Shown: positions 46,393-64,000, numbered from the stretch's first letter. The stretch: DNA of 64,000 nucleotides from Bryobacteraceae bacterium (GCA_036501045.1 DASYAX010000407.1:8670-72669); one strand, 5' to 3'. Numbers and translations: made by a program. Notes: generated from the sequence alone by a model not told the origin.

Positions 46393-46410
46393 AGGGCGGC
46401 GGGCTGCAAG

Positions 46411-47196
46411 CTAAGGATGGCGATGCAGCACGTGGGTGGCGATATCGGGCCAGAACTCGCGGAAGACGTTGGTGAGCGCATCGCGCATGAGGGAATAGCC
46501 CAACTTGGTAGCAAGCTCGCCGGCGGTACGGTCCGCACTGGGATAGTAGGTCGAAGAAATTCCCTGCGCCATGGCGCGGCCCAATAATTCCGAAGCGTTT
46601 AAGCTGGCGTGGCCGTGATAGTTCGGGGTGATGAGGATGCGGCTGGCCGCATAGATAGCGCGTTTGCCGATGCTGCCCTTTCCCAGGGCGTAATAACGTT
46701 CGTCCTGGTGAAAGAGAGTGGGGAGGGCGAAAATCACCAGATAATTTCCGTCCGTTTTGTCCAGATAGCCGCGCCAGTAATAAGACCAATAGGCGGTGAT
46801 GCCCACGCCAAGCTGTTTGTGGGCCTGCTGGCCATCGGCGATCGCCGAGGTGAAGCCGGTGAAGAGAAACGCCGAATAATCGAAGCTGTTTTGCGTGGCG
46901 ATTTTAAAAGCTTGTTTCAGGGTGGGGGGCGGCGGGATGGCGCCAGCGCTGACGGCGCGGTAATTGGGCATGACGCCGAGAATGCGCTTGGGCTGGCGCT
47001 TCGATTTTGGAACCGCCTCGTCGCCTGTTTTGGGCTGATCGGGCGCCGGCGGGGTTGGTGTTTGCTGGTCCGCGTAAAAGGAGGCCACCAGATGGACGGC
47101 GTGAACCGCCGCGAAGGCGCTCGAGCGATAGCCGCTCGGTTGGCCGAAGGAGCTGGTCGCCATCGATAGAAGGGCGAGCGACAATACGAAACGCAT
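46411..47196 (-). CDS. Hypothetical secreted protein
   Basis: Start taken at the internal ATG 47196 (MRFVLSLALLSMATSSFGQ signal). No recognised motifs. Confidence 0.5.
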   Translation of the reverse strand: MRFVLSLALLSMATSSFGQPSGYRSSAFAAVHAVHLVASFYADQQTPTPPAPDQPKTGDEAVPKSKRQPKRILGVMPNYRAVSAGAIPPPPTLKQAFKIATQNSFDYSAFLFTGFTSAIADGQQAHKQLGVGITAYWSYYWRGYLDKTDGNYLVIFALPTLFHQDERYYALGKGSIGKRAIYAASRILITPNYHGHASLNASELLGRAMAQGISSTYYPSADRTAGELATKLGYSLMRDALTNVFREFWPDIATHVLHRHP

Positions 47197-47364
47197 ACGA
47201 AACGAGACGGCAATATTGTGAGTGCGCGGGATTTTTAGCCTCTTTGCAATGGCGTGAAGCACCATGGTCGCATAGCGAGGGTGGCCGCCCCCGAGGCACT
47301 ACAATTCTTGACCTAAATTTTCGCGGCTAGCGTCTACAGATGACTTTATTCGACTGCGAAGCAA

Positions 47365-50300: not shown

Positions 50301-50475
50301 GAACTTCTATGGGAGTCCAGTGGCCATGGGCACGTATACGGGGACGTCGATTCAGATTCCCATGACGGGACTGAGCATCGCGGCGCCGAACGGCAATGTG
50401 CCGAGTCCGCCGATTCACACGGCGCCGCAGTTCGGCACGTTTGTGCTGCTGCCTCTGCCCTACCGGTCTAGATGA
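47365..50475 (+). CDS. Large secreted protein: 2 malectin-like domains, 2 BACON-like Ig repeats and a C-terminal right-handed beta-helix domain
   Basis: Signal peptide. IDCG[SA]FQSYTGADGTVW...FNV[TS][IL]NGT.VLSNFD[IV]VAQGGYF occurs twice. NITN[TA]GGGTLNWTA...WL...G.Y repeats occur twice. The C-terminal ~480 aa are paralogous to 60221-61789. Confidence 0.8.
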   Translation: MKMRLPIFPRVALLAGTALLLARPAALQAQTISIDCGSFQSYTGADGTVWQADRYYTGGQQLYSSYGVGGSADSLLYRTGRAGYYGDFSYSIPVSNGQYSVSLKFAETQYSAAGQRVFNVTINGTQVLSNFDIVAQGGYFSAIERTFSTTATASAIQITVHGVVNLGLLSALQITPVASGGGSPPPAGGTQAVQIDCGAFQSYTGADGTVWAKDQYYAGGTPFYAGYPAGGTADPALYGTARTGFDGNFSYAIPVGNGAYRVTLKFAEIQYWAPGQRIFNVSLNGTPVLSNFDVVAQGGYFKAIDRQFTTTVANGLVQIGVTGVVNTGLLNAIQIVPAGGTTTPPVSTPVLQISQTSLTFAGAPGGANPAAQSVNITNTGGGTLNWTAATNQGWLTVATGAGTAPSTLSINAASSGLAAGTYTGTVTISATGASGSPQTVGVTLNVTAAPAVLTLSTHALGFSGLAGGADPAAQSVNITNAGGGTLNWTASKTQPWLTLSAGSGSAPGALSVGVSIAGLAAGSYSDVVTVAAPSAGVAAQAVSVTLAIAGTQSTSSQHYVSPSGSSSGDGSITRPWDLPTALSGPSSVHPGDTIWIRGGTYGNGRGVFYSSLVGTAAAPIIVKQYPGERATIDGWLQVGCCDQNPHPNQGAYVWFWGLEFASSITDRTGQPDGPPAYGQSAVLDSIDTWAPGSKFINNVIHDTRMGPAMWKEATGAEAYGNIVYDNGFQASDRGHGHGFYLQNNSPTMSVSDNFSFNNFDNGLQAYGSDAAIVRNITVQGNIMFNNGIIAAGRPVADDVIFAWTGGLSGMQLLNNYFYNTPSRDLGYNELGWASPNADLVAQNNYFMGGFESLALSDWQSVNFQNNTVYSQDKFTVVLNTNSTASNWAWDNNTYYGSGLFLDNGNSGTYASWPGWTHFDVHSVYRPGAPTGIWTFVRPNKYEPGRANIAIYNWDLASSVAVDISSAMAAGTRYEVRDAQNFYGSPVAMGTYTGTSIQIPMTGLSIAAPNGNVPSPPIHTAPQFGTFVLLPLPYRSR
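47455..48376 (+). repeat. Intragenic tandem duplication (two ~145-aa malectin-like units, ~480-nt period)
   Basis: The units start near 47455 and 47935. Long identical peptide stretches include FQSYTGADGTVW and VLSNFD.VAQGGYF. Confidence 0.7.
48409..49012 (+). repeat. Intragenic tandem duplication (two ~100-aa BACON-like units)
   Basis: PAAQSVNITN.GGGTLNWTA occurs twice, about 300 nt apart. Confidence 0.7.
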
Positions 50476-51509
50476 AGCCCAAGCGCGCTCGAGAGGCGGT
50501 GCTTCCAACCGGCGCGGAAGCGGATCAAGCCAGCCAAAAAACCGGCTCCGTAGGCGACGTGCAGCACGGCGAAGGAAAACATGATTCCGGGACGGAGCGG
50601 CTGGTCCGGCGGAGGAGCGATTTTTACGGCGGCGAGGGCGGCTGCGCCGGTGTAGGCGACAGCCACGGTTCCTAGCAGCACGCGCGGGAGACGGAAAAAG
50701 GGCGCAGCGCCTAGCAGAGTCGCCAAGCCGAGCACGAAGCAGGCTGGAACGAACTGGCGAGGCTGCATCTGCCTGGGATGCTTCTGCATGACGCGCACTT
50801 TCCAAAGGCCGTATTCGTAATACTGGCGCCAGAGAGACGAGACGGTGCCGCGGTTGAAATATTGGGAACGAATGAGCGGAGTGAGCAGGACACGGCCGCC
50901 GCGCTCGCGCAAGCGATAATTCAGCTCGTCGTCCTGATTGCGGACTTGCTCCTCGTCGAAACCACCGATCCAATCGAAAACGGCGCGCGGCCAAGCGCCG
51001 AGATAGACGGTATCGACCCATTCTTCGCGGTTTGAATAATGGAAGCGCGCGCCGCCCACACCGAAGGGCGATGAGGTGGCGAGCGCGACGGCTTTACCGA
51101 AGGGCGTCGTGCCCACGGGAGACATGCGGCCGCCGGCGTTGTGAGCGCCGCTGCGCTGTAAGGCTTCGACGCATTGCCTGACGTAATCGCGCTCGACGAC
51201 GGTGTGGCCATCGACGCGCACGATCACATCGCCGCGGGCGTGCGCCAAGGCGATATTCAGTCCGGCGCTGACGAAGCGTTGGGGATTATCGAGGATGGTA
51301 ACGGCGGGCGAGGGGGAGGCGGCGGTAGCGGCGGCGATTACTTGGCGGGTGGCATCCTCCGATTGCCCGTCGGCGATGAGAAGCTCCATGCGATCAAGCG
51401 GAAAATCCTGCTCGAGGATGGCGGATACGGTTCGTTCGATGAAGCTTGCTTCGTTACGGATCGCGAGGATCACGCTGACAAAAGGGGACTCTGGCAAGGA
51501 CGGAATCAT
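50460..51509 (-). CDS. Glycosyltransferase family 2 (ExoA-like) with C-terminal TM helices
   Basis: FVSVILAIRNEASFIERTVSAILEQDFP, VDGH and QDDELNYRL. The C-terminus is hydrophobic. The 3' end overlaps the convergent gene by 16 nt. Confidence 0.85.
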   Translation of the reverse strand: MIPSLPESPFVSVILAIRNEASFIERTVSAILEQDFPLDRMELLIADGQSEDATRQVIAAATAASPSPAVTILDNPQRFVSAGLNIALAHARGDVIVRVDGHTVVERDYVRQCVEALQRSGAHNAGGRMSPVGTTPFGKAVALATSSPFGVGGARFHYSNREEWVDTVYLGAWPRAVFDWIGGFDEEQVRNQDDELNYRLRERGGRVLLTPLIRSQYFNRGTVSSLWRQYYEYGLWKVRVMQKHPRQMQPRQFVPACFVLGLATLLGAAPFFRLPRVLLGTVAVAYTGAAALAAVKIAPPPDQPLRPGIMFSFAVLHVAYGAGFLAGLIRFRAGWKHRLSSALGLHLDR

Positions 51510-51544
51510 GCCTAAAGGAATTATCGGGAAAAGAAGCGTAAAGC

Positions 51545-51581
51545 GGAAGAAAAAGAAAATGGGCGGGGGAGAGCCCCGCCC
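51545..51581 (-). terminator. Rho-independent terminator after the PEP-CTERM gene
   Basis: Minus strand: GGGCGGGG-CTCTC-CCCCGCCC (8-bp GC stem, 51561-51581) followed by ATTTTCTTTTTCTTCC. It lies 31 nt after the stop codon. Confidence 0.7.
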
Positions 51582-51611
51582 ATAAGATTAAAAAGCGAAC
51601 AAATTGAAGAA

Positions 51612-52376
51612 TTAGCTCCGGCGACGGCGCAACGTGGCCAGACCTAATAGACCCATCCCGAGAAACGCGATGCTGGCCGGTTCCGGGGTCGCTACCGTGG
51701 CGGGCATGATGTCAAAGTTCGCGATGCGGTTGTTGCCGCTCCCGCCGCCTACGGGCGTTGAATCGACGAACAAGTCGAGGCCAATAGAGGCGCCGACATC
51801 AATGCCCGGGAGAGTGAGAGTCAGGGTTGGGACCTGGAGCCATTGGCCGTCGGTTGGAACGGTAATAGCAAAGCCCGACCCGATGTCGAGGCCATTTGCA
51901 GTGAAGTACAGGATGATAGTCCCTACTGGCGCCGTCGGGGTAGTGTTGTCCGATGGCAAGGTGCTAGGCGTACCAACCCACAGATTACTCAGCACGTATG
52001 TATTTGCCGAGCTATAAGTGCCAAGTCCAGTTTGCGTCAAATGGCCCGATCCCTCTACGTTGGTTGGGCTGGTTGCCGCATGGGTCCCGTCGGGAACAAT
52101 CTTGCCGCCGGTCAAGCCGTCCGAACCAGCGGTATATTGAGCACTTGTGACCGTGTAAGAAGTGAATCCCGGGGTCGGGCTGCCGGTGCATGTCCAGCCA
52201 ACCGGACAACCGACGGTATCGCCGGGCTGGACGGGTTGGTTTCCTGCCTCAAAGGAAGGATTGGCTACCAGAGTGCCTAAATCGATAGTGGCGCCGTACG
52301 CGTTTGCCGAAGCAAAGAGGCATGCGAACGCGACGGGGAGCATCAGAGCTCCCCGTACAGAGATTATTTTTTTCAT
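51612..52376 (-). CDS. PEP-CTERM sorting-signal protein (Thr/Ser/Gly-rich, jelly-roll-like N-terminal part)
   Basis: Start at the internal ATG 52376 (MKKIISVRGALMLPVAFACLFASANA). The C-terminus VATPEPASIAFLGMGLLGLATLRRRRS has the PEP motif, a TM helix and a basic tail. NPSFEAG occurs near the N-terminus. Confidence 0.85.
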   Translation of the reverse strand: MKKIISVRGALMLPVAFACLFASANAYGATIDLGTLVANPSFEAGNQPVQPGDTVGCPVGWTCTGSPTPGFTSYTVTSAQYTAGSDGLTGGKIVPDGTHAATSPTNVEGSGHLTQTGLGTYSSANTYVLSNLWVGTPSTLPSDNTTPTAPVGTIILYFTANGLDIGSGFAITVPTDGQWLQVPTLTLTLPGIDVGASIGLDLFVDSTPVGGGSGNNRIANFDIMPATVATPEPASIAFLGMGLLGLATLRRRRS

Positions 52377-52530
52377 TTTTCCTCCTGAGTAACTACCAAA
52401 GCTGTTGCGACAAAGTGAAGGGATCCAAGGATCAACGCGAGTATTTCCAATCGTCGATGGGTTTGAGTCCGACAAAAAGCAAAGTTCCCCGAGCCCTTAA
52501 TTCCAGAGAATTTCGGGCAGTATCGGGTCG

Positions 52531-52560
52531 ATTATACTAGCAAGGAGACGCGTTTGTATC
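52531..52560 (-). promoter_or_regulatory. Candidate sigma70-type promoter for the PEP-CTERM gene
   Basis: Minus strand: GATACA (52560-52555), an 18-nt spacer, then a perfect TATAAT (52536-52531), about 150 nt upstream of the ATG. Confidence 0.3.
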
Positions 52561-52641
52561 GGGGGAGAAGTGCTGGTACTGCCATGACTTAGCTCCAGTT
52601 AGCGAAGTACCAGGATCTATCACGCAGGGCAGAAAAACTGT

Positions 52642-53505
52642 TTACGTTTGACTCGCGCCGATGCGCTGCCTGGCAGTGCATTCGACCTGCGCCATGGTTT
52701 CGAAGGTTAGTTTGCCGTGCGCGCGCTCGCGCTCGAAGGTAGCGAAAAAGCGGCCCAGCAGCTCGGCCGATTCGACATTCGGGGTAGCGTGCGCGAGGGC
52801 TTGGTTCGGATGGGCGTAAAGGACAACCAAGCTGTCGGTATCAAGGTAGCGGCGCACCAAGCTTACGGCGGTGTCGCCGAAGCCGGTGGCATGCAGCGGG
52901 ACGGCGACCAAGCCATGGAAGAGAAACGGCACGGGAAGGTAGCCGTTGGTCATGCGGAGTTTGTCGGCGATTCCTCGAAAGGTATTGCGAAAGCTGACCC
53001 GGCACCAGCCGAAGCCCAAGCGCTGGAGGGTAGTGAGCAGGGTGCCGATGCTTTGGCGTCCGCGTCCGCGTCCTTGCAAGCCGAAGCATTCCGAGAAGCT
53101 GATGGCGCCTTTATGCGGGAAATGGGACGGCCGGTTAAAGGGTGGAATGTAGCCTCGAATGCTTTTGCCGATACAGGCTTCGAGGGCCTCTTTGCTGGCT
53201 TTTGTATCGTCGAAGAGCTGCTCGCTGCGCATGGGCGGGAGGAAGCGATGATACATGGAATGCGAGGCGATTTCATGTCCGGCTGCATGCAGGCGGCGGA
53301 TTTGATCGGGACAATGATCAGGCGGCTCGCCGGGTAAGGCGACCAACCCGACCACGGCGAAGGTGGCTTTGACGTCTTCGGCGGCCAGCACTTTGAGAAG
53401 CGCTTCGGTGCCTTCAAGGTCGGCGGCGGGGTGATAATCCTTCTTGCCGAAGGATTCCCGATAGCCAGCGGGCGAATCGTAATCGAAGGAAATGGCGACC
53501 CGCAT
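52642..53505 (-). CDS. Polysaccharide deacetylase family protein (CE4)
   Basis: Start at MRVAISFDYDS. FDYD and HEIASHSMYH (H-S-x-x-H) are the CE4 metal motifs. Confidence 0.8.
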   Translation of the reverse strand: MRVAISFDYDSPAGYRESFGKKDYHPAADLEGTEALLKVLAAEDVKATFAVVGLVALPGEPPDHCPDQIRRLHAAGHEIASHSMYHRFLPPMRSEQLFDDTKASKEALEACIGKSIRGYIPPFNRPSHFPHKGAISFSECFGLQGRGRGRQSIGTLLTTLQRLGFGWCRVSFRNTFRGIADKLRMTNGYLPVPFLFHGLVAVPLHATGFGDTAVSLVRRYLDTDSLVVLYAHPNQALAHATPNVESAELLGRFFATFERERAHGKLTFETMAQVECTARQRIGASQT

Positions 53506-53521
53506 TGCTAGATGATAGTGC

Positions 53522-54217
53522 TCATCGCTTGGTGGCGACAACACAATACTGCGCGCCGAAGGGTAGGTGGAGTAGGGCGGGCTCCAGCACGCGCAAGGGC
53601 GCCAGGGCGCGGGGAAAATAAAAAAGGAAGCGAACGGCGTGGGAAATGGCGAAACCGCCTTCGCGGACTAATGCTTTAGTTTCGAGATAGGAGAGGGTTT
53701 TCGCATCGCGATCGAACGGGATGCGGCGCATGACCATGCGGGTGCCTGGATTCCAGGGATTGTTTTCGAATAAGGCGAAATAGCCGCCGGGCGCCAAGGC
53801 GGTATGGATGGCGCGTACGGCCTCGAGGCGGCGTGGGAGCTCGATGTGATGAAAGACTCCGTTCACGTAGCAGAGCTCGAAGGGCGCTTCGCCAGGGAGC
53901 GATTCGATGGCGCCGAAACGGACATTAGAGGCGCGGTGCCGGCGGCCGGCCAGCTCGATGGCGGGGGCGGCGGTATCGACACCGACCACCGTAGCTCCCG
54001 GAAACGTTTGCGCCAGATGAGCGGAAGACTCGCCGGTACCGCAACCGAAGTCGAGAATGCGCGAGGGTTTGAAGCCGGAGGGCAGACAGCGGGCGAGATC
54101 GGCAATACGGGCGCGCATGAAGTAGGCGGGATCTTCGCCGGAGAGGCCGACGCCCATGCGCAGCATCTCCTCATACTGCTCGCTCAGGTCGAACAGGTCG
54201 TTGGCGTTGCCGGTCAT
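53522..54217 (-). CDS. Class I SAM-dependent methyltransferase
   Basis: Start at the internal ATG 54217 (MTGNAND), which forms ATGA with the upstream stop. ILDFGCGTGESS is the SAM motif. Confidence 0.8.
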   Translation of the reverse strand: MTGNANDLFDLSEQYEEMLRMGVGLSGEDPAYFMRARIADLARCLPSGFKPSRILDFGCGTGESSAHLAQTFPGATVVGVDTAAPAIELAGRRHRASNVRFGAIESLPGEAPFELCYVNGVFHHIELPRRLEAVRAIHTALAPGGYFALFENNPWNPGTRMVMRRIPFDRDAKTLSYLETKALVREGGFAISHAVRFLFYFPRALAPLRVLEPALLHLPFGAQYCVVATKR

Positions 54218-55431
54218 GCGGCCACCTTTGCCAGGCGCTCCTTGGTGCGGGCGCGCAGAAACTCGAGGCGGTCTTCGAGAAGATCGAGAATGTAATCGCA
54301 AGCGCGGGTAGTCAGCAGGATGATGGCGACTGAGAACAGGAACGACATGGCAATGAAGCGCGACCAGTGCTCGTAGGTGGCGCCGGTACGGGCCAACTGC
54401 ACGAGGCTCGGCAGAACGAGCAGGCCGCCGGCGGTCATCAGCAGCAAGGGAAGAAGCCAAAAATAGCGGCTTTGGAGGGTAGCTTGGGCGACCGAGGTAA
54501 GCGACCGCCGGCCCGCACCGTTTTGTAGCGTGATGCCGACGATACGCGCGGTGACGTAACTCGCCGAAAACAACAGGCAAGCGCAAATGCCGGCCAGATG
54601 GCTGACTACGAAACGATAGATCATCCATTCGGCGACCGAACGATGGGCTAGGTAATAGAGCGTGGGATTGAGCATCAGCCCGATTGCCACCAGCAGACAA
54701 CCGAGGCCGAGGAGGCTCAAGGGGCGTTCCGGCCGGTAGAGAAAGGCGGCCTCGAAGATCACTTTGAGGAAGCGCAGCCCGTCGCGCACGACATTGAGTT
54801 TGGAATGGCCTTCGCGCTCGGCGTACGGCATGTCGATCTCGCGCATTTTGAGGCTGCGGTCGAGCATGGCGCGGGCGCTCATGGCGGGAGTAAAGTGCAT
54901 GCCGGTGGGGAGCGGCTCGAGTTTATCGAGGCTTTCGCGGCGGACCACGCGCATGCCGCTTGCGGTATCACGGACGCGCGTCGAAGAGAAGACGCCGAGC
55001 AGCAGCGCAAAGATGGAATTGCCGAAGCGGCGCAGGGCGGGCATTTTGCTCTGCTTGTTCATGCGGCAGCCGATAACGACGTCGGCTTTTTCGGCCTCGA
55101 TGGCGCTGCAGAGGGTGGAGAAAAAGCGGGGATCGCAGGTGCCGTCGGCGTCGAGGAAGCCGAGCAGGTCGGCATCGGACTGCTTCCAAGCTTCTTGGAT
55201 GGCCGCGCCATAGCCGCGATTTTTGTGAAAGGCGATTACTTTGATTTCGTGGTCGTGGGTTTGGGCAATTTCGAGCGTGCGGTCGGTAGAGCCATCGCTC
55301 ACGACGGCGATATCCACCTGATGAACCGGCGAGGTAGCGGTAATATGCGCGCGCGCAGCGAGCGAGCGCTCGATAATCGGCTCGATGCTCTGCTCTTCGT
55401 TATAGGCCGGGATGGCAATCAGCAACTTCAT
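54214..55431 (-). CDS. Membrane-anchored GT2, polyprenyl-phosphate sugar synthase type (GtrB/ArnC/DPM1-like)
   Basis: Start at MKLLIAIPAYNEE. NRGYGAA and LDADG motifs. The last ~150 aa contain about four hydrophobic helices. Confidence 0.75.
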   Translation of the reverse strand: MKLLIAIPAYNEEQSIEPIIERSLAARAHITATSPVHQVDIAVVSDGSTDRTLEIAQTHDHEIKVIAFHKNRGYGAAIQEAWKQSDADLLGFLDADGTCDPRFFSTLCSAIEAEKADVVIGCRMNKQSKMPALRRFGNSIFALLLGVFSSTRVRDTASGMRVVRRESLDKLEPLPTGMHFTPAMSARAMLDRSLKMREIDMPYAEREGHSKLNVVRDGLRFLKVIFEAAFLYRPERPLSLLGLGCLLVAIGLMLNPTLYYLAHRSVAEWMIYRFVVSHLAGICACLLFSASYVTARIVGITLQNGAGRRSLTSVAQATLQSRYFWLLPLLLMTAGGLLVLPSLVQLARTGATYEHWSRFIAMSFLFSVAIILLTTRACDYILDLLEDRLEFLRARTKERLAKVAA

Positions 55432-55465
55432 GGCAAAATCCTCCAAAAAAAGGGGCGGGCGGTCA

Positions 55466-56584
55466 TTAGCCGGCACCCGAAAAACGATGGGCGGCAGAAA
55501 ACAGTAATTCGCGCCAGCGTGGAAGAATCACCGACCAGTCATATTCTTCAACGGCTCGCCGGGCGTTTTGCGATAGGGTAGCGGCCAATTTCGGCTTTCC
55601 GAGTATTTCCGAGACCCCTTGGGCGAGGGCTTGGGCATCGCCGGTAGGAACCAGCAGGCAATTGAGGCGGTCTTTGGCGAGATACGGGATGCCGCCGGGC
55701 GCGGTGCTGACGACGCAAGCGCCGCACGCCATCGCCTCGAGCAAGGTAACGGGATGGTTGTCCACGGCCGAGGTATTCATGAAAATATCACCCTGGTTGA
55801 GAAAGAGGGGGATTTCGGCTTTCGGGAGGCGGCCCGAAAAGTCGATGCGGCCGGCGACGCCCAGGGCTTCGGCGAGCGAGCGGGCTTCGATGAGACTGCC
55901 ATCCTGTTTGTCCGGCCCCGCCATGCTGAGCCGGACATCGGGAAAGTCGGCAGCAAGCAGGGCGAGCGCACGCACGGCGGTGGATGGCTGGTAAATCCGA
56001 TGGAAGGCGCGCAGCCAAATGAGGCGCGGGGCGGCGGTTTGGCGCGCCCGGAACGGATAGGCCGGGAGGTCGATGGCGTTGGGAAGAATCAGAATGTCCG
56101 AGCGAAAGCGCTGAAGCGCTTCGGATAGATAGCCGGACGGGGCGGTCACGGCCGCGGCCGAGCGGAGCAGTGCGCCGAGAAATCGCGGCCAACGAGCGCT
56201 GAAGGCCGGCAAGTTACCCCCATGTAACGTGAGGATATACGGTTTCTTCAGGCAGCGCAGCAACCAGCACACAGCGGCGGCCCAGAAGAAGGCCGGTCCG
56301 CTGAACAGATCGATTTGGGCGACTTGGTATTGTTTACGGGTTCGCCAGGCGGCGACGAGCATGTCGAGGAGACGCGCGAGACGACCGGTGCGGTGCGAGG
56401 TGGCGACGACGGTCCACCCGGAGGCGGACAAGCGCTCGGCTAAATCTTCGCAGACGCTGCGATTGCGCCCGGCGGACGAGAGAAAGTTGCCGACGATGAG
56501 CACCGAGCCGGTGTAGGGGGTGGGGGCAGGCGCGTGATTTTCCGTCCCGGCGGCTAAGGCGTCGAGCGGCGCGAGGGGTGCCAT
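55466..56584 (-). CDS. Glycosyltransferase family 4 (GT-B, 'group 1')
   Basis: SVLIVGNF... N-terminal domain. NTSAVDNHPVTLLEAMACGACVVST is the EX7E-type motif. Confidence 0.8.
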   Translation of the reverse strand: MAPLAPLDALAAGTENHAPAPTPYTGSVLIVGNFLSSAGRNRSVCEDLAERLSASGWTVVATSHRTGRLARLLDMLVAAWRTRKQYQVAQIDLFSGPAFFWAAAVCWLLRCLKKPYILTLHGGNLPAFSARWPRFLGALLRSAAAVTAPSGYLSEALQRFRSDILILPNAIDLPAYPFRARQTAAPRLIWLRAFHRIYQPSTAVRALALLAADFPDVRLSMAGPDKQDGSLIEARSLAEALGVAGRIDFSGRLPKAEIPLFLNQGDIFMNTSAVDNHPVTLLEAMACGACVVSTAPGGIPYLAKDRLNCLLVPTGDAQALAQGVSEILGKPKLAATLSQNARRAVEEYDWSVILPRWRELLFSAAHRFSGAG

Positions 56585-56611
56585 AAAACTCTTATCGATT
56601 CTTCTCAGCCT

Positions 56612-58330
56612 TCATTTTGTCGTGCCGCCGGGGGGCGGAAGCAAGGGGAGAGCTTTACTGTAAATCGTTTGTGGTACTTCCGGATAGCGCCGGAGATCCT
56701 GGGGGGAGCGGTCGGGTTGGAGCAGCCAGAAGTGACGGTCTTTGAAGTAGGCGAGCAGACGGCGGTCTTCCTGGGGGGGCATGTCGTCGCGGGCCCAGAC
56801 GACCTTGGAGGCGTCGATATCGGCGCGGTTGTAGACCCATTCCTGGATGGGATTATGGGTGGCGGAATAGCGTACCAGGACCACCTGCCCGCCGGGTTGG
56901 GCTTCGAGGGTGCGTTCGATCGCGGCGCGCTCACGGGGAAAGGCGGCGGTAGAAGGTTCGGGCTTCAGGTGTTCGATGAGGCTGACGGCGCTACAGAGGA
57001 TAACGGCGGTAGCGCAGGCTTGACCCACGCGGCGGCCGCGGAAGCGGAAACAGGCAAGACGCCGGAGCGAGAGCAATTTCAAAGCGGCGGCCAAACCGAT
57101 CACGGGAGCGAAATAGTGAATCTGGCACCAACCTTCGACCGAGAGAGCGGCAAGGAAGAGGGCGAGGACGGCGATCAGGAAGCGCGAGGCCGGAGCGCGC
57201 CACAGAAAGAGCCCGGAGGCGAGGCACAGCAGCAGAAAGAAATTGCCGAACAGTACTTCTTTGGCCATACGCAGCCGGGTTTTCTGGATGGCGATCCAGC
57301 CGTGGAGAGTTTTGAGTTGATCGACGGATTGGTAGTGAGGCTCCCATTCAGTGTAGAAGCGCTGCATGACGGCGTGACGGTAATGCGGAGCGGGCGTACT
57401 CGATTGCCAGACGAAGAGCGGGACGGTCGAATAGGTTTTATGGACCGCTACATAAGGAAGACGTAAGGGATTGCCGGTGATGCGCCAGCAGTAATAGAGC
57501 ATGCTGGCGGCGGTAACGGTGAGTAGCAGAGAGCACGGGACCAGGGCGGAGACGAAGCGGCGGCGGAACGCGCCGGCATGGTCACGGAAGAACGAGTAGA
57601 GCAAGCTGACGGCGACCGGAAGCATGACGGTCATGCCCTCCCAGGGACGGCTGTTGAGCAGAATCGCGACGCCGACGGCGAGCAGGATGCCGTTTGCGAG
57701 GGCGCTCGAAGAGAGCGGCCGGAACTTTCGCAAGCGGCCGTACGCGCCGAGCACCAGGCAGCCGCCGATCGCGGCCGGCGCGCCACCCCAATAGGAATTC
57801 ATCCAGTAATGAGTGACTCCGAACTGCAGTCCGACGGCGAGCGCGCCGAATAGCGCCCATTTTCCGGGCAGCCAGGCCTGGAGCATCCAACACATGGCGC
57901 CGCACATGAGACCCACGCTGAGAAACACGCCCCACCAGGGATGCCCGAAAAGCACTTGCCCGGCGGCCATGAAGAGGCCCTGCGCGGGCGGGTATTTCGA
58001 CATGTAGGAAGGCTGCTGTAACACATGGAAGCTTTCAAAGAACTCCCACAGCGGATGGGTCAAGTTGGTGACGCGTCCGTGAGCGAAGGTATCGGCGGCG
58101 AGGAGATAGCTGAATTCGTCGTGGATACGCGGCAACGGGATGGGGAGCACGGGTAACATGCAGAGGCGGATCAGCAAGGGGAGGGCGGCGGCGCTGGCGA
58201 TGGCCAAGGCGGCGTGCCGCGCGAAATAGCCGAAGACCACACGGACGGGGCGCACGGCGGCGCGCAGCGCTTTGGGCCGGAACCAGAACAGCGCGAAGAC
58301 GGCGAGGAAGATAGCGAGATTGAGCAGCAT
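56612..58330 (-). CDS. Polytopic membrane protein, GT-C-like glycosyltransferase candidate
   Basis: At least 10 hydrophobic helices. The acidic motif PRIHDEFSYLLAADTFAHGR follows TM1-2. The C-terminal soluble domain is ~170 aa. ATG 58330 overlaps the upstream stop (TGATG). Confidence 0.6.
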   Translation of the reverse strand: MLLNLAIFLAVFALFWFRPKALRAAVRPVRVVFGYFARHAALAIASAAALPLLIRLCMLPVLPIPLPRIHDEFSYLLAADTFAHGRVTNLTHPLWEFFESFHVLQQPSYMSKYPPAQGLFMAAGQVLFGHPWWGVFLSVGLMCGAMCWMLQAWLPGKWALFGALAVGLQFGVTHYWMNSYWGGAPAAIGGCLVLGAYGRLRKFRPLSSSALANGILLAVGVAILLNSRPWEGMTVMLPVAVSLLYSFFRDHAGAFRRRFVSALVPCSLLLTVTAASMLYYCWRITGNPLRLPYVAVHKTYSTVPLFVWQSSTPAPHYRHAVMQRFYTEWEPHYQSVDQLKTLHGWIAIQKTRLRMAKEVLFGNFFLLLCLASGLFLWRAPASRFLIAVLALFLAALSVEGWCQIHYFAPVIGLAAALKLLSLRRLACFRFRGRRVGQACATAVILCSAVSLIEHLKPEPSTAAFPRERAAIERTLEAQPGGQVVLVRYSATHNPIQEWVYNRADIDASKVVWARDDMPPQEDRRLLAYFKDRHFWLLQPDRSPQDLRRYPEVPQTIYSKALPLLPPPGGTTK

Positions 58331-60213
58331 CAATTTTTCGCCAAGCTATTGACGGAGGTCTCCGCGGAGGGGCGGAGGCGATAGAAGAAATAGCGCGTAT
58401 TGCCGATTTGTTCCCAGCCGGAGGGCGGCGTTACGCTCGCTGGAACGTTTGAGGCGACGACAAGCAGCGCGCCGGTTTGGGCAAAGGCGGCGAGGGAGCG
58501 GGCTTGCGCCGCCGGGTCGAGTTTCCAGTAGGGATCCTTGGGGGCGAAGGCGTTGGTGTAGATTTCGGCGACGATCCGGCAGCGGGCGAGGCGCGCCCAT
58601 TGCGCATTGCCGTGATTCGCGTATTCGAGCGAAGCGATCTTCGAGCCGGGTGGGAGCTCGACTTGTTGCGTAAGCGCGGAAGCGACCTGCCAGGCTTCAA
58701 ATTGCGAGGCGCCTTGCGGAAGCGAGCCGCGGAGGGTGTAAGCGGCGAGACGCGCGCTCGAGACGCCGACTGTAAGCGTAAAGGCCGCGACGACGGCGAT
58801 CGCGAGGGGCTTCAGGAAGAGCTGGTCTGTGCCGATGGGGAAACGGATGGCCGAAAACAGGCCGAGATAGAGCAGCACGATGAAGGGCGCAAGATGCCGC
58901 GGCTCGCAGTAGACGAGGGCGTACATGGCGAGCGCGGCGAAGGAGAGCAGCAGCAGCGGCCGGGCGGCCGGACTAAATGGGGCAAACGCCCGCCGGGTGC
59001 GCCAGAACAACACGAGCCAGGCAGCGAGTAGCAGCGGCGAGAAGAAGCGGAACCAACGGTCTTCGCGATAGAGCTGAACGACGTGCACGTTCAGCAGCAG
59101 GCTGTACATGAAGTTCAGATTGACCAGAATTTTACGGACTTGCTGGGCGGGATCGAAGACCGGGGCGAGACCTTCGTTCCAATAGCTCGGGTCATACCAG
59201 ACCGGATAGGTGCCGGCGACCGGCCCAGCGAATTCATAGACGGGAGGCGCATCGAGTATTTTGCGCGTGGGGTGAACGGGGACGCCGCTCGAGGTGGGGC
59301 CTTTCGACCAGCGGGGCGCGACTTCCGAGCGGGTTCCGAGCGGCTCGCCTTGCCAGTGACGGTAGCTCGCGCCATCGACGTACCAGGCATAGTTGAGCCG
59401 TCCGGAGTCGCCGAAGGTGGGACGCTGTTTGCTTTTCGAAAGCGCGATGACGTAAGGGCCGGCGACGAGCAGAAAGGCGGCGAAAGCGGCCAGCGTTTTG
59501 GGAAGCAGCTTCGGCCATTTCGCCGGAGCGAGCAAGGTCAGGGCGAGGAATACAAACGCTAAGAGGAAGACGGGAACTTTCGCGAGGTAACCGCAGCCGA
59601 GGAGCAAACCGAGCACCAGAAATTTTTGCAAATCGAGGGCGCCCGCAGCGATTTCGAGCAGAAGGCCGGCGGCGAAAAAGACAAACGCCGCAACTTCCAT
59701 GTCGGGTGAGGTGGAGCTGACGGTGACCAATTCGAGCAGTGCCCAGACGGCGATCGTGTAGCCGGCGGCGACGAGCAGCCAGCCCGGCAGCGGTTCCGCC
59801 GAGGCGGCTTTGGTCGCGGGCCGGGCCCGGCGCACGCACTCGACCAGCCGCTCGAGAAAGAAATCGAAACCGGCGAAGGCCGCGAGATAGATGGCGAAAT
59901 TGACGGCATGGACGACGGCGAATTCGTAGAGCGGGCCGGGCTTCGCAATCGCGAGCGCAAGGGCGATCGCGGCCGGATAGAGCGGGCTCCAATAGCCGTT
60001 GACGGCGGCCTGCCAATCGCCGTGCGCGAGGCGGCTCGCGATATCGAGATAAGAAATGCCATCGCTCGTGATGGTGTTGCGAGAGGCCCAGGCTTGGAGC
60101 GCGCCGGCGAGAATGGCAAACAGCCAGAAGAAGAGCCGCAGGCGGCGCACGTTACGGTCGAACGCCTGGGTAGTTTTTAGCGCGTAGGCCACGTCGAAGG
60201 TGCTGGTGGTCAT
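58330..60213 (-). CDS. Polytopic membrane protein, GT-C-like (PMT_2/ArnT-like) glycosyltransferase candidate
   Basis: Start at MTTSTFDVAY (60213). ITSDGISYLDIASRLAHGD follows TM1. There are many TM helices, an internal soluble loop and a C-terminal soluble domain. Confidence 0.65.
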   Translation of the reverse strand: MTTSTFDVAYALKTTQAFDRNVRRLRLFFWLFAILAGALQAWASRNTITSDGISYLDIASRLAHGDWQAAVNGYWSPLYPAAIALALAIAKPGPLYEFAVVHAVNFAIYLAAFAGFDFFLERLVECVRRARPATKAASAEPLPGWLLVAAGYTIAVWALLELVTVSSTSPDMEVAAFVFFAAGLLLEIAAGALDLQKFLVLGLLLGCGYLAKVPVFLLAFVFLALTLLAPAKWPKLLPKTLAAFAAFLLVAGPYVIALSKSKQRPTFGDSGRLNYAWYVDGASYRHWQGEPLGTRSEVAPRWSKGPTSSGVPVHPTRKILDAPPVYEFAGPVAGTYPVWYDPSYWNEGLAPVFDPAQQVRKILVNLNFMYSLLLNVHVVQLYREDRWFRFFSPLLLAAWLVLFWRTRRAFAPFSPAARPLLLLSFAALAMYALVYCEPRHLAPFIVLLYLGLFSAIRFPIGTDQLFLKPLAIAVVAAFTLTVGVSSARLAAYTLRGSLPQGASQFEAWQVASALTQQVELPPGSKIASLEYANHGNAQWARLARCRIVAEIYTNAFAPKDPYWKLDPAAQARSLAAFAQTGALLVVASNVPASVTPPSGWEQIGNTRYFFYRLRPSAETSVNSLAKN

Positions 60214-60220
60214 GTGAGGC

Positions 60221-61789
60221 TTAAGACGGCAGCAGAACAAAAGCACCGAATTCCGGCGCCGAATGTTTCGGCGGAGTGGGAACTTGGCCGTTGGGAGCGG
60301 CTACGGCGAGGCCGGTCATGGGAATTTCGAGCGGACCGCCCTGATAAAGACCGGTGCAGACCGGCGGTCCGAAGAAATTTTGGACATCGCGGACTTCGAA
60401 GCGCTGGCCGCGCGTTAGGACGCTTGCGGCATTGACCGGAACCGGACTCTTGCGGTCCCAGTTATAGATGACGATGTTGGCGCGGCCTTTTTCGTATTTA
60501 TTAGGACGCACAAAGGCCCAGATACCGGTGGGGCGTCCGGGCGTGAACTGGCTGTTGGCGTCGACCTTGGCCGAGGAGCGCCACAGCACCCAAGGCATTT
60601 GCCGTCCACCGATGGAGAAGATGCCGGAGCCGAAATAGCGGTTGTGGTCCCACTGGTAATTCGCAAAACTTTGATTGGCGAGCAACTCGACGTTCACCAG
60701 GATTTTGGAGTTCGAGAACACCATGTTGTGGTTGAAGGTTACTTTGTTCCAGCGGGCGAGGAACAGCGCAATGTCGCCGCCAATCCAGTAATTGTTGACG
60801 ATGTTGGCGGAGTCGTTCAGCGGGCTGAATTGCCAGCCGATACTCGAATGGCCCTGGTCGTCGGCGGGGGTGTGATAGGTGAAGTTTTGGTCGAGGGTGA
60901 GGTTGTCGACGCCGGTGCCGACACCGAAGAGAATATTGTCATCATGCAGCCCGCGGCGCGAGATGGTGCCGTTATTGAAGACGATGTTGCCGCGCAAGAC
61001 AATATCGCGCACCCAGGCGGTCGCCGAGCCATAGCCATGGATACCGAGACCGAACTGATCGAACACGATATTGTCTTCGAGGACTTTTGTGCCGCTTTTG
61101 TTCTGCACGTAGATGCCGTGGCCATGGCCGCGGTCGGGCCCTTGAAAACCGTTGTAATAGACGATGTTGCCGTACGCCTCGCCGGCGCCGGCTTCGGTCC
61201 ACCAGCCGATGCCTTCGCGGGTATCGTGAATCACCAGATTGATGAAGCGCGTGCCGGGCGCCCAGCTATCGATGGCATCGGGGACGGCGGACTTCCCCCA
61301 ATCGGGCGGACCGGCGGCGCCGCCGGTGCGATCTTTGATGGAATTGGCGAACTCGAGTCCCCAGAACCAGACATAGCCGCCGGAGGCCGGCTGCGGATCT
61401 CCGTTGCAGCAGCCCACCTGCACCCAGCCGTCGATGGTCGCCCGCTCATGCGGATAGGCACGCACGACGATGGGCGCGTCAGGCGTGCCGAGCAAGCGGG
61501 TGCGAAAGATGGTAGAGCCATTGCCGTAGTGCCCGGCGCGAATCCAGATCATGCTGCCGGGCTTCACGCCCTGCGATTGATAGAGCGCGGTAGCGAGATC
61601 CCAGGGGGCGGACAGGCTGCCGTTGTTTGACGCTTTGCCGTTGGGCGATACATAGAAGTCGGCGGGCCCGGGCCCACGCATGGGATCGGCCGGTGGGCGG
61701 CTCGATAACGGAGGCGAGGCGATCAGGAAGAGACCGGCGACGAGAGCGAGCAGGCCCAGGGCCGGGGTGCGGGTGACGATGTTTTTCAC
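60221..61789 (-). CDS. Secreted right-handed beta-helix protein, paralogue of the C-terminal domain of 47365-50475
   Basis: The GTG start overlaps the upstream stop (GTGA). Signal peptide present. Shared motifs include ERATIDGW.QVGCC, YVWFWGLEFA, GEAYGNIVY.NGFQ..DRGHGHG, FVRPNKYE.GRANI.IYNWD and IPMTGL..AAPNG.VP.PP. Confidence 0.75.
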   Translation of the reverse strand: MKNIVTRTPALGLLALVAGLFLIASPPLSSRPPADPMRGPGPADFYVSPNGKASNNGSLSAPWDLATALYQSQGVKPGSMIWIRAGHYGNGSTIFRTRLLGTPDAPIVVRAYPHERATIDGWVQVGCCNGDPQPASGGYVWFWGLEFANSIKDRTGGAAGPPDWGKSAVPDAIDSWAPGTRFINLVIHDTREGIGWWTEAGAGEAYGNIVYYNGFQGPDRGHGHGIYVQNKSGTKVLEDNIVFDQFGLGIHGYGSATAWVRDIVLRGNIVFNNGTISRRGLHDDNILFGVGTGVDNLTLDQNFTYHTPADDQGHSSIGWQFSPLNDSANIVNNYWIGGDIALFLARWNKVTFNHNMVFSNSKILVNVELLANQSFANYQWDHNRYFGSGIFSIGGRQMPWVLWRSSAKVDANSQFTPGRPTGIWAFVRPNKYEKGRANIVIYNWDRKSPVPVNAASVLTRGQRFEVRDVQNFFGPPVCTGLYQGGPLEIPMTGLAVAAPNGQVPTPPKHSAPEFGAFVLLPS

Positions 61790-63198
61790 GGGATACGGAC
61801 GACTTCCCGCTCGGCTTCGCGCTCACGCGGCAGCCGGCTGATAACGGCCTGAAATTTGCCGCGGCTCGAACGCGGAATGGACGGGACCGGCTCGACCTGG
61901 ACGGTGACGGCGGGGCCGAGACGATTTTTTACGCGCTGGATGACATCGCGAATGTCGGGCTCGCCGAAGCCCTGGGCGGGAACGATCTTGACGTGGATGA
62001 GATCGAGCTTTTCCTGAATGATCTGGCCTTCGCGAATATGCGGCTGATCGACGAAGATGCCATGAAAGCGCACCAGACGGCGGCCATCGGGGCCAACGAC
62101 GACATCTTCGGTCCGGCCGAGAACTTCCTGCATGACGGGCATCGACGAGCCGCAGGGACACGGCTCAGCAGCCCAGGCGGCGACGTCGCCGAGCCGATAG
62201 CGGATAAAGAGCTGATACTCGCGGAGCAGCGAGGTAGCGACCACTTCGCCCGGCTCGCCGGGATCGCAGGCCGCGCCATCGGGCCGGAGAATCTCGACGA
62301 TCGCAACATCCGGACTGAGATGCAGGCGGCCGTGCGCGCATTCGCTCGCAAACAAAGAGCTCTCGACGGTGCTGTACTCTTCATAGACGCGCGTGCGGTA
62401 GGCGCGCTCCATCACCTGGCGCATGGCGGGCGTGAGTTTTTCGCTGGTAGTGATGATGGCGCGCAGCGCGGGGACCTCGAGCTTCTGTTCGAGGATCATT
62501 TCGGCTAGCAGGTAGTAGGAGACGGCATAGCCGGTGAGCCATTGGACGCGGTGTTGGCGCAGCGCCTCGACATACAGTGGGGCGTTTTCGGGACGCAGGT
62601 GAAATGGCGACAAATAGACCTGGCCTTCGACCGCGTTATAGCGGTGGAAGGGACCTGTACTTTCGGGATCGGGCTCGGCCATGCGGCCGGAAAAGGTGGC
62701 GCGCCGTAGACGGAAGGAGACGCCCGCCCAGCGATTGGAGCGCACTTCACGGAGCGCGAGCGAATTGCGGATCTCGGACGCTTTCCAGATGGTGCGGATG
62801 GGCGTGCCGGTGGAGCCACTGGTGTGGAAGGAGAAGTCCGGCCAGGCTGTCACGTCGGTGCGGACAAAGGCGCGGGCATCGGCGCGGATCGCGTCTTTTT
62901 CAAGCAACGGCAGGTCCGCCAATTCGCCGGCGAGCGCGGCGGCGGTTTGCGTTTTGGTCCAGGTGTCGCGGTAATGCGGAATGTGCTTGGCCGCGACCGG
63001 AAGCAAGCGGGCGAGCCGTTCTTTTTGCCAATGGGACCATTCGCCCGGAGTAAAGCGTTCGCGCTGTTCATAGCCGCGGACGTATCCGCGGTATCCCGGG
63101 CCGAAGCGCAGCCAGTGCCAATAGGCGCCGTAGGTGGTGACTGCACCATGTTGCGCCCAGACGGGCAGCCGCTTATAGAGATCGAGTGCAAGGCTCAT
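61786..63198 (-). CDS. Phenylacetate-CoA ligase family adenylate-forming enzyme (CapK / F390-synthetase-like)
   Basis: FHTSGSTGTPI is the adenylation motif. 470 aa. ATGA overlap with the upstream gene. Confidence 0.8.
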   Translation of the reverse strand: MSLALDLYKRLPVWAQHGAVTTYGAYWHWLRFGPGYRGYVRGYEQRERFTPGEWSHWQKERLARLLPVAAKHIPHYRDTWTKTQTAAALAGELADLPLLEKDAIRADARAFVRTDVTAWPDFSFHTSGSTGTPIRTIWKASEIRNSLALREVRSNRWAGVSFRLRRATFSGRMAEPDPESTGPFHRYNAVEGQVYLSPFHLRPENAPLYVEALRQHRVQWLTGYAVSYYLLAEMILEQKLEVPALRAIITTSEKLTPAMRQVMERAYRTRVYEEYSTVESSLFASECAHGRLHLSPDVAIVEILRPDGAACDPGEPGEVVATSLLREYQLFIRYRLGDVAAWAAEPCPCGSSMPVMQEVLGRTEDVVVGPDGRRLVRFHGIFVDQPHIREGQIIQEKLDLIHVKIVPAQGFGEPDIRDVIQRVKNRLGPAVTVQVEPVPSIPRSSRGKFQAVISRLPREREAEREVVRIP

Positions 63199-64000
63199 GG
63201 CGCAATATCGGGGCGGTCGACCATGGGCCTCAGCGAGACGAGCGGTCCCGCGCGTTTGCTGAGCACCTGGCCGTAGACTTCAGCCACTTGCGCCACGATG
63301 CGTTCGGCTCCATAGTGTGCGGTGACGCGCTCACGCAGTTTTTTGCCGAGCGTGGCGCGGCGCTCGGGAGAGCCGAGCAAAGAAAGTAAGGCGGCAGCAA
63401 GCTCCGCGGGCGAGCCGGGCGGGACCAGGATGCCGGCAGCGCCTTCGGCGAGCACTTCGGGGCATTGCCCGACATTGGTCGCGATAGCGGGAAGACCGGA
63501 CATGCCGTACTCGAGTAGGGCGAGAGGCAAACCTTCCGAACGGGAGCTGAGGACGGCGATATCGCAGCCTTCGATGATGGCCGCGACATCGTTGCGGCGG
63601 CCGAGATAGGAGACCGAGGCCGCGAGACCGAGCTCCCCAATTTGCCGCAGGATGGAATCCTTGTACGCGGCGTCGGCGAAATCGCCCACCAGCAGCAGAT
63701 GCGCTTGGGGTGCCTGGGTTTTGAGGAGGGTCATGGCCGCGAGCAGCGTGGGATGATCTTTTTGCGGGCGGATATTAGCAACACAGACGATGCGGCTGCC
63801 GGGGACGCCGGGAAGCTCGACGGCCGAGCGCCCACCCGCGGGCATTTCGACCAGATTAGGGATGTACCAGACGCGCCCGGCGGGAATGCCGAGCGTCCGG
63901 CGCGACCATTCGGCGAGTGGATGATTCACCGCGATGACGCCGCCCACTCGCCGGGTGGCGGCCCGATAGAGCCAGGCGGGGCGGTCATTGAAGGTGTAGC
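63195..64000 (-). CDS. Glycosyltransferase family 4 (partial; the N-terminus lies beyond the window end)
   Basis: The reading frame stays open to position 64000 (..YTFNDRPAWLYRAATRRVGGVIAVN..). SSRSEGLPLALLEYGMSGLPAIATNVG is the EX7E motif. Confidence 0.8.
   Translation of the reverse strand, partial: YTFNDRPAWLYRAATRRVGGVIAVNHPLAEWSRRTLGIPAGRVWYIPNLVEMPAGGRSAVELPGVPGSRIVCVANIRPQKDHPTLLAAMTLLKTQAPQAHLLLVGDFADAAYKDSILRQIGELGLAASVSYLGRRNDVAAIIEGCDIAVLSSRSEGLPLALLEYGMSGLPAIATNVGQCPEVLAEGAAGILVPPGSPAELAAALLSLLGSPERRATLGKKLRERVTAHYGAERIVAQVAEVYGQVLSKRAGPLVSLRPMVDRPDIAP

Follow-up and report, generated by a model that had tools for sequence, protein, structure and literature searches.

What is assembled by a gene cluster in which a predicted membrane-bound sugar synthase and a deacetylase are encoded next to two large polytopic proteins that domain libraries do not recognize? 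The question is raised by a 64,000-nucleotide stretch of DNA from a Bryobacteraceae bacterium (GCA_036501045.1 DASYAX010000407.1:8670-72669; here the window), in which an earlier note, made from the sequence alone, described six genes at 52642-60213 as a carrier-lipid glycosylation module reminiscent of the Arn pathway. We propose, with moderate confidence, that these genes are a slice of a long exopolysaccharide (EPS) or cell-surface glycan operon encoding a lipid-carrier-dependent branch of extracytoplasmic glycosylation, the most likely acceptor of which would be the polysaccharide of the locus itself. We establish here which domains and folds the proteins have, that the two polytopic ones are paralogous and carry conserved motifs, and that the gene order is conserved.

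The two polytopic proteins, GT-C1 (572 amino acids (aa); 56612-58330, minus strand) and GT-C2 (627 aa; 58330-60213, minus strand), match no model in Pfam or NCBIfam, and none of the 45 GT-C1 homologues scanned matched a Pfam model. Searches of PDB chains by sequence and by family profile returned nothing meaningful for either protein, and fold comparison alone was informative. AlphaFold2 models were built from alignments of 46 (GT-C1) and 47 (GT-C2) sequences, which also underlie the conservation figures given below, and both are confident, with a predicted local distance difference test score (pLDDT) of 92.8 and a predicted template modelling score (pTM) of 0.92 for GT-C1, and 88.8 and 0.91, respectively, for GT-C2. 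In each model, several helices form a membrane core, and an alpha/beta domain makes up the C-terminus. At E<=1e-3, Foldseek matched them in the PDB exclusively to glycosyltransferases of the GT-C fold (18 matches for GT-C1, 7 for GT-C2), with ArnT at the top for both: ArnT (5ezm) scores 6e-6 with GT-C1, ahead of AglB, ALG12, STT3, PglB, ALG9, AftA and Pmt4, and 4.7e-7 with GT-C2, ahead of ALG12, AftB, ALG9, AglB and STT3. The suggestion of the earlier note that both proteins are GT-C enzymes is thus borne out at the level of fold. Wzy, O-antigen ligase and transporter folds were also considered and none of them ranks, the matches to BetP and to G-protein-coupled receptors having TM-scores of only ~0.1-0.15.

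The acidic motif that had been noticed just after the first transmembrane (TM) helices of each protein (PRIHDEFSYLLAADTFAHG and ITSDGISYLDIASRLAHG) was located in both and is conserved. In GT-C1, residues P66, P68, D72, E73 and F74 are invariant; GT-C2 has an invariant D51, and its D57 reaches a conservation of 90% or more. Both D72/E73 and D51 come after the first modelled TM helix, and we would place the acidic residues on the periplasmic side. The two motifs resemble one another by eye (HDEFSYLLAADTFAHG vs SDGISYLDIASRLAHG), and hhalign aligns the two families with 96% probability (E 2e-9) over the C-terminal two-thirds, including the soluble domain; on this profile comparison GT-C1 and GT-C2 are distant paralogues. 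As regards known families, the expectation that the pair would match GT-C models of the PF13231/PF02366 type failed for both window proteins and held for part of the GT-C2 family, in which 14 of the 47 homologues match PMT_2 (PF13231; best 4e-6). Two GT-C2 homologues scanned singly scored 27.5 and 23.8 against a gathering score of 26.1, one just over and one just under, and GT-C2 is accordingly described as borderline PMT_2-like. As far as the models and the sequence tests run can tell, both proteins are GT-C by fold and not members of GT83/ArnT, and they probably transfer sugar outside the cytoplasm. The one indirect support for a putative lipid-phosphate-sugar donor is the conserved ArnC/DPMS-type GT2 encoded alongside.

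This GT2, GT2-TM (54214-55431, minus strand; PF00535, 4e-28), has a GT-A domain followed by four C-terminal hydrophobic segments (residues 240-377), predicted to span the membrane. Its best PDB matches are ArnC (8e-13), the Pyrococcus dolichyl-phosphate-mannose (Dol-P-Man) synthase PfDPMS (1.7e-12) and GtrB (1.3e-7), and its alignment with E. coli ArnC (27% identity over 257 aa, E 2e-17) covers residues 2-251 and reaches into the first TM segment. The best NCBIfam matches, namely AglJ, a haloarchaeal Dol-P-hexose transferase, ArnC, PpgS (3e-14) and PgfS (5.6e-14), are all lipid-phosphate sugar synthases. GT2-TM stays below all the equivalog cutoffs (AglJ, 99.8 bits vs 325; Dol-P-hexose transferase, 93 vs 375; ArnC, 58 vs 529), so that it does not qualify as an orthologue of a named enzyme. 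Collectively, the closest solved relatives, the named-family matches and the four C-terminal segments, a number shared with PfDPMS, agree with the original description of a polyprenyl-phosphate sugar synthase, and the protein groups with these enzymes, not with soluble-acceptor or processive GT2s. By its sequence, therefore, GT2-TM is probably the loader of a sugar onto a membrane lipid carrier.

How far does the unit extend? The six co-directional open reading frames (ORFs) were all recovered on the minus strand: from the 3' end of the visible operon, the CE4 deacetylase gene (52642-53505; PF01522, 4e-16), a gene for a class I S-adenosylmethionine (SAM)-dependent methyltransferase (MT; 53522-54217; Methyltransf_25/23/12/11, ~1e-16), the GT2-TM gene, a GT4 glycosyltransferase gene (55466-56584; PF00534, 2e-24; PF13439, 2e-10) between those of GT2-TM and GT-C1, and the two GT-C genes. 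The motifs quoted for them (AIPAYNEE, LDADG, NRGYGAA, FDYD and HSMYH, besides the two acidic motifs) were all located, and the Pfam matches anticipated for the soluble enzymes (CE4, methyltransferase, GT2 and GT4) were all obtained. Reading the junctions from the DNA upheld the TGATG overlap between the GT-C genes (58332-58328) and the ATGA overlap between the MT and GT2-TM genes (54217-54214); the other gaps inside the six genes are 16 nt (MT to CE4), 34 nt (GT4 to GT2) and 27 nt (GT-C1 to GT4). Only 7 nt, again read from the DNA, separate the GT-C2 gene from a gene for a secreted right-handed beta-helix protein (Pel9A-like; 60221-61789, minus strand; PF13229, 2e-5), which in turn shares a GTGA overlap (61789-61786) with the gene of a CapK/F390-synthetase-like adenylate-forming enzyme (61786-63198, minus strand). 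The start of the latter is overlapped, in an ATGA at 63198-63195, by the stop of a further GT4 gene (63195-63947, minus strand; PF00534, 7e-33; C-terminal GT1 domain only). Since this tight packing goes on upstream, the operon comprises at least nine genes and reaches the end of the window. The genes and packing of the proposed six-gene unit thus stand, but not its extent: the six belong to a run of nine or more coupled genes, the 5' part of which lies beyond the window. Two near-identical related contigs end where the visible operon ends.

The order CapK-like, (beta-helix), GT-C2, GT-C1, GT4, GT2-TM, MT, in most cases with CE4 as the next gene, is found again in four further Bryobacteraceae/Solibacter lineages, represented by loci L005/L006, L001, L003 and L004/L007 (L004 and L007 being the same contig, from a Candidatus Solibacter metagenome-assembled genome). 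Identity to GT-C1 is ~92% in L005/L006, 63% in L001 and 57% in each of L003 and L004; across the four lineages the module proteins are 50-97% identical, depending on the protein, and GT2-TM is kept at 77-97%. The GT-C2/GT-C1 and GT2/MT junctions overlap or abut in all related modules, the latter in L001, L003, L004 and L005. The GT4 gene at 55466-56584 has a counterpart in the equal position in L001 and L003-L006. The CapK-like gene is the conserved first gene of the recurring module, and its homologues in L001, L003 and L004, which carry PF27533 (CapK_C), immediately precede either the GT-C pair or the beta-helix gene. In L003, the CE4 gene lies upstream instead and a PEP-CTERM gene follows MT. 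The GT2-CE4-GT-C-GT-C neighbourhood is therefore retained in four lineages, with CE4 displaced in one, and none of the three contrary outcomes that the earlier note had named (a non-GT-C fold, a GT2 of another type, an unconserved neighbourhood) was observed.

Beyond these lineages, GT-C1 has many relatives. In a collection clustered at 90%, 5,967 of 8,000 scored candidates are related to it at E<=1e-3, and at 50% identity the family comprises 8,479 clusters at E<=1e-3 and 3,707 at E<=1e-30. At least 593 stretches of species-representative genomes encode a relative; the genome survey used 80 of these, and 79 stand-alone GT-C1 loci were compared for neighbours. The 80 stretches come nearly all from Acidobacteriota (Terriglobales, Bryobacterales, Acidiferrales, Sulfotelmatobacter), and by these searches the family of GT-C1 is a large one that lacks annotation and, in this survey, is mainly acidobacterial. 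The idea that GT-C1 is always tied to this module was rejected, as none of the 79 loci has the full module and only two (L061 and L065) have GT-C2 nearby.

A GT2 related to GT2-TM is nonetheless found within 10 kb of stand-alone GT-C1 in 22 of the 79 loci, and in 9 of these GT-C1 and a GT2 ORF of ~405 aa converge in one fixed arrangement (the GT2 domain was confirmed by Pfam in both of those scanned). Additionally, L065 (9863-19654) has the array GT-C1, GT2, GT-C2, GT-C1, GT-C1 together with a GT2-TM-like/MT pair, and L061 (9839-17221) has GT-C1, GT-C2, GT2, GT-C1; the gene orders make it appear that the GT2/GT-C association arose independently again in these two loci. Such repeated re-association is the strongest argument for GT2-TM, with MT, and the GT-C proteins acting together. 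Tandem GT-C1 arrays also occur, with four copies in L044 (9854-21039) and three in L056 (8165-15897), which suggests diversified acceptor or linkage specificity.

Two candidate tailoring enzymes accompany GT2-TM. The ATGA overlap links MT and GT2-TM by translational coupling, and in the distant L065 the MT orthologue (E 2e-50) is the one again paired with a GT2-TM-like gene beside the GT-C array. In a separate observation, the CapK-like enzyme and MT match the NCBIfam models of a DVU_1553-family AMP-dependent ligase (1.3e-35) and a DVU_1556-family methyltransferase (2.4e-10), both below cutoff; these models are named for adjoining Desulfovibrio genes, a hint of a recurrent ligase-methyltransferase partnership, and our search found no literature on DVU_1553/DVU_1556.

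As for the CE4 protein, it had been read as an ArnD-like deacylase acting on the carrier. Two motifs, an N-terminal DxD and HExxxHxxxH, are common to it and E. coli ArnD, its residues D8, D10, H77, E78, H82 and H86 aligning to DVD and HHEVGLHAWDH of ArnD, and it has no signal peptide, from which a cytoplasmic location is predicted. The domain, motifs and location are thus in line with that role, whereas specific kinship with ArnD is doubtful: overall identity is 22%, BLASTP gives E 0.001 over 65 aa, an ArnD insertion of ~37 residues is absent, the closest solved relatives in the PDB are peptidoglycan GlcNAc deacetylases, and the best NCBIfam match, far below cutoff, is an XrtA-system polysaccharide deacetylase. 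Being remotely ArnD-like and displaced in L003, the enzyme makes carrier-linked deacylation a conjecture; on its motifs, an ArnD-like role on the carrier lipid is possible.

Does the gene next door encode the acceptor? The PEP-CTERM protein gene (51612-52376, minus strand; PF07589, 3e-5; TIGR02595) encodes a signal peptide, a C-terminal PEP-CTERM sorting signal and a mature part rich in G (13%), T (13%) and S (8%). Its likely start is Met34, the signal-peptide Met at 52376 (MKKIISV...), which leaves ~265 nt to the stop codon of the CE4 gene. Ahead of it, near 52537-52532, is a perfect TATAAT box, and an intrinsic-terminator-like hairpin follows the gene directly (51583-51559, minus strand), a strong one with a 10-bp stem of which 8 pairs are G-C, then TTTCTTTTTC. 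These signals indicate that the gene is probably its own transcription unit. The adjacency described in the earlier note holds, in that a G/T/S-rich PEP-CTERM protein is encoded downstream. Orthologues follow the module in L005/L006 and L003, L004 has a non-orthologous PEP-CTERM gene 4 kb off, and L001 has none within 10 kb of its module. PEP-CTERM genes are numerous in Acidobacteriota and habitually lie near EPS loci, so that proximity to the module is weak evidence. No exosortase was found among the ~46 window ORFs scanned, an operon that continues past the window not being covered in full, and matches to the stp2 and pepcterm_polyde models fall well below cutoffs. Literature searches on Acidobacteria, PEP-CTERM, EPS and Solibacter returned general papers only, none with the term PEP-CTERM. 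In L003 (1-460, more than 2,600 aa) and L004 (1-6606, 3,801 aa), genes for giant immunoglobulin-like (Ig-like) repeat proteins (Big_7/Laminin_G_3) adjoin the module, or its EPS genes, on the upstream side; these proteins are possible alternative acceptors.

We infer the donor type, topology, order of steps, sugar and acceptor of the proposed branch as follows. As its family would suggest, GT2-TM would use a nucleotide sugar to glycosylate polyprenyl (undecaprenyl) phosphate on the cytoplasmic face of the membrane. By conjecture from gene linkage, the coupled methyltransferase may tailor the lipid-linked sugar, and the cytoplasmic CE4 may deacetylate it if it is an N-acetyl-hexosamine. A flippase or, putatively, the four-helix tail of GT2-TM would bring it to the periplasm, where the paralogous GT-C pair would transfer it by means of the acids of the first external loop (D72/E73 and D51); the two enzymes may serve different positions or acceptors, or act jointly. 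By analogy with Gtr-type three-component side-chain glycosylation, the acceptor would most likely be a polysaccharide of this GT4/GT2-rich locus, the PEP-CTERM protein being less likely. A bolder version, which we regard as quite unlikely, is that GT-C1 represents a new phylum-wide GT-C family and forms a heteromer with GT-C2 that adds a methylated, de-N-acetylated amino sugar to PEP-CTERM/exosortase cargo or to an EPS anchor. If a heteromer did decorate exosortase cargo, exosortase sorting would for the first time be tied mechanistically to lipid-carrier-dependent glycosylation.

Several observations weigh against a lipid-phosphate-sugar branch as outlined. The Foldseek TM-scores are moderate (0.45-0.57), with large root-mean-square deviations; neither family profile gave a hit when compared by hhalign with the one ArnT sequence of E. 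coli (probability <=2%); helix counts by DSSP and Kyte-Doolittle are ambiguous as to the side on which the C-terminal domains lie; a related GT2 is missing within 10 kb of GT-C1 in 57 of the 79 loci; the CE4 does not look specifically akin to ArnD and has been relocated in L003; and no flippase candidate (GtrA/SMR, ArnE/F, MATE, Wzx) was found within or adjoining the module among the nine operon proteins checked, nor was one seen in the related loci L001, L003 and L004. Lastly, oligosaccharyltransferases, which use undecaprenyl- or dolichyl-pyrophosphate (Und-PP, Dol-PP) donors, score close to ArnT. The GT-C proteins might not be fed by GT2-TM at all, and instead be a polymerase, a ligase or an oligosaccharyltransferase-like enzyme acting on Und-PP glycans, with CE4, MT and GT4 working on an Und-PP repeat unit or on nucleotide sugars. 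That AglB, PglB and STT3 match nearly as well as ArnT, that no Wzy-like polymerase appears in the visible locus, and that the CE4 is closer to polysaccharide and peptidoglycan deacetylases than to ArnD and varies in position are all compatible with this; GT4 enzymes, moreover, usually build repeat units. Yet an ArnC/DPMS/GtrB-type GT2 would not be expected on these terms to be kept so closely and to re-associate with GT-C1/GT-C2 arrays in distant genomes, nor would ArnT, a user of monosaccharide-phosphate-lipid, be expected as the top structural match of both proteins. Neither Wzx nor Wzy was found among the window ORFs scanned, but the 5' part of the operon is outside the view, so that the absence of Wzy is not established. 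On balance, the Und-PP alternative appears rather doubtful to us.

Slightly less doubtful, yet still unlikely, is protein O-glycosylation in the manner of Pgf or PMT enzymes, in which GT2-TM would supply the lipid-linked sugar and the GT-C pair would glycosylate Thr/Ser-rich secreted proteins in the periplasm before exosortase processing, with the PEP-CTERM or giant Ig-like proteins as acceptors. In its favour, the G/T/S-rich PEP-CTERM gene lies directly downstream, PEP-CTERM genes occur within 10 kb in the window, L005/L006, L003 and L004, the modules of L003 and L004 have giant Big_7 proteins at their flanks, the structural matches include Pmt4 and Pmt1/2, and the Pgf operon follows a like logic, with the GT-A enzyme PgfS, two GT-C proteins and adjoining adhesin substrate genes (PMC12041528). 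The promoter-like box and terminator of the PEP-CTERM gene, its lack of a counterpart within 10 kb in L001, the non-orthologous one in L004 and the higher structural ranking of ArnT and of ALG/Aft enzymes over PMTs all speak against it. A true Arn/Lgm-type modification of lipid A or the lipopolysaccharide (LPS) core by a cationic amino sugar, whereby GT2-TM would make undecaprenyl-phosphate (Und-P)-linked N-acetylhexosamine, CE4 would convert it to Und-P-hexosamine and GT-C would transfer it to a lipid A phosphate, is very improbable and, given the context, the least likely rival. The composition of GT2, CE4 and GT-C does fit, ArnT is the best structural match, DxD and HExxxHxxxH are common to CE4 and ArnD, and the Bordetella Lgm locus has the same three activities. 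There, LgmB adds glucosamine to lipid A phosphates (PMC11401268). However, no lipid A, LPS-core or arnA/arnB-type genes were found in the window or in L001, L003 and L004; the surroundings are those of an EPS-type operon rich in GT4 genes, which also encodes secreted beta-helix proteins and a CapK-like enzyme; this chemistry needs no second GT-C, GT4 or methyltransferase; and the profile comparison with E. coli ArnT was, as mentioned, negative.

How does the favoured glycan-operon reading compare with characterized systems? Among three-component systems, which comprise GtrA/GtrB/Gtr*, the Gram-positive CsbB/GtcA/YfhO and C. youngae ORF15/ORF14/ORF12, the founder of GT136, a polyprenyl-phosphate sugar synthase gene likewise lies beside GT-C-fold transferase(s) within a polysaccharide locus, and the GT-C protein has behind TM1 a loop on the periplasmic side, as predicted here, and ends in a soluble domain, which in ORF12 is a carbohydrate-binding module (PMC11127046). 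As Kelly et al. point out with GT136, new GT-C families are still being founded (PMC11127046). In contrast to these systems, the module studied here has no flippase gene, contains two paralogous GT-C proteins and not one, conserves MT, CE4, GT4 and CapK-like genes in the unit, and encodes GT-C families that are not Gtr*, YfhO or GT136 by the sequence tests run. The GtrB structure has two TM segments, as opposed to the four of GT2-TM. With the Arn pathway (ArnC/ArnD/ArnT) it shares the 27% identity of GT2-TM to ArnC, the CE4 motifs and ArnT as the top structural match, but ArnA/ArnB and ArnE/F genes and a lipid A context are missing, and the CE4 lacks the ArnD insertion.

Mycobacterial pathways offer another parallel: there, a GT2 lipid-sugar synthase feeds several paralogous GT-C enzymes, as with Ppm1 and MptA/B/C, PpgS and Rv3779 for galactosamine on arabinogalactan, and Emb/Aft, and the PpgS route de-N-acetylates a lipid-linked N-acetylhexosamine. 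PpgS is among the NCBIfam matches of GT2-TM, and AftA, AftB, Emb and AftD are among the structural matches, whereas the phylum and envelope differ, sequence-level membership in those GT-C families is lacking, and the genes here are co-operonic with GT4, CapK-like and methyltransferase genes. A close counterpart in composition is the S. mutans Pgf operon (PgfS, PgfE, PgfM1, PgfM2), a characterized protein glycosylation system with its substrate genes adjoining, which also combines one GT-A/GT2 lipid-sugar synthase, a tailoring enzyme and two GT-C proteins with candidate substrate genes next door (PMC12041528). Unlike GT-C1 and GT-C2, PgfM1 and PgfM2 belong to the YfhO family; the Pgf tailoring enzyme is an epimerase, as against MT and CE4; and Pgf serves a Gram-positive with sortase-anchored adhesins, whereas here a diderm is concerned, with a PEP-CTERM/exosortase-type protein the linkage of which is not universal. 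The view of the earlier note that no characterized system has this composition must be narrowed accordingly: one GT2 with two GT-C proteins beside substrate genes is already known, for example from Pgf (PMC12041528), and it is the particular composition that is new, i.e., MT, CE4, GT4 and a CapK-like enzyme, no flippase gene, and a paralogous GT-C pair of which one member comes from a very large unannotated family.

The surroundings of the operon are of EPS type on both sides, with several GT4/GT2 genes, a CpsB/CapC phosphatase and secreted beta-helix/malectin proteins. A second membrane GT2 (50460-51509, minus strand; PF00535, 1e-20) has three C-terminal hydrophobic segments (TM segments at 253-329) and homologues in L001, L003 and L005/L006. 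The beta-helix protein of the operon starts with an N-terminal hydrophobic signal-like segment, its L001 homologue carries PF22842, and by its family it is probably a polysaccharide lyase, hydrolase or epimerase. A 1,036-aa protein with two malectin domains, BACON and a beta-helix (47365-50475, plus strand) is 53% identical to it over its last 478 residues (E 1e-169), which makes two paralogous secreted Pel9A-like beta-helix enzymes that flank the module, and the same duplication is seen in L001. The upstream GT4 at 63195-63947 has as its best NCBIfam match TIGR03088, a PEP-CTERM/XrtA-system glycosyltransferase (1.6e-35, below cutoff, profile positions 141-374 only); an in-frame stop precedes the window end, and its N-terminal domain may lie in another frame or be lost.

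Further away, ORFs 30887-32698 and 32625-33992 (both plus strand) match the two halves of the outer-membrane beta-barrel model PF25183 (positions 1-461 and 478-838), so that 30887-33992 looks like one TonB-dependent-type receptor gene broken by a frameshift, as a pseudogene or through a sequencing error. At 45232-45966 (minus strand), an ORF with no family match overlaps an opposite-strand ORF at 45274-46392 (plus strand; 373 aa) in which LDIGGSTG, a glycine motif like that of class I SAM methyltransferases, is present; of the two, the plus-strand ORF is probably the true gene. GC skew is mostly negative or ~0 up to ~44 kb and then strongly positive, at +0.12 to +0.19, over the last 20 kb (44000-64000), a part in which the minus strand carries the entire operon and the majority of the long genes.

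What does the locus mean for these bacteria? The mechanism in which a polyprenyl-phosphate-sugar donor serves a GT-C transferase is well established in other phyla, and the present analysis is thus of value for extension and annotation and offers no new principle. Few soil bacteria are as abundant as Acidobacteriota, and their EPS contribute to soil aggregation; to our knowledge, almost nothing is known about the biochemistry of acidobacterial glycan assembly, and our literature search on GT-C with Acidobacteria and EPS found no papers. Since the GT-C1 family goes unrecognized by domain libraries, the annotation of probable periplasmic glycosyltransferase could be given to thousands of 'hypothetical proteins', and the locus would offer a conserved, tractable entry to the EPS chemistry of the phylum.

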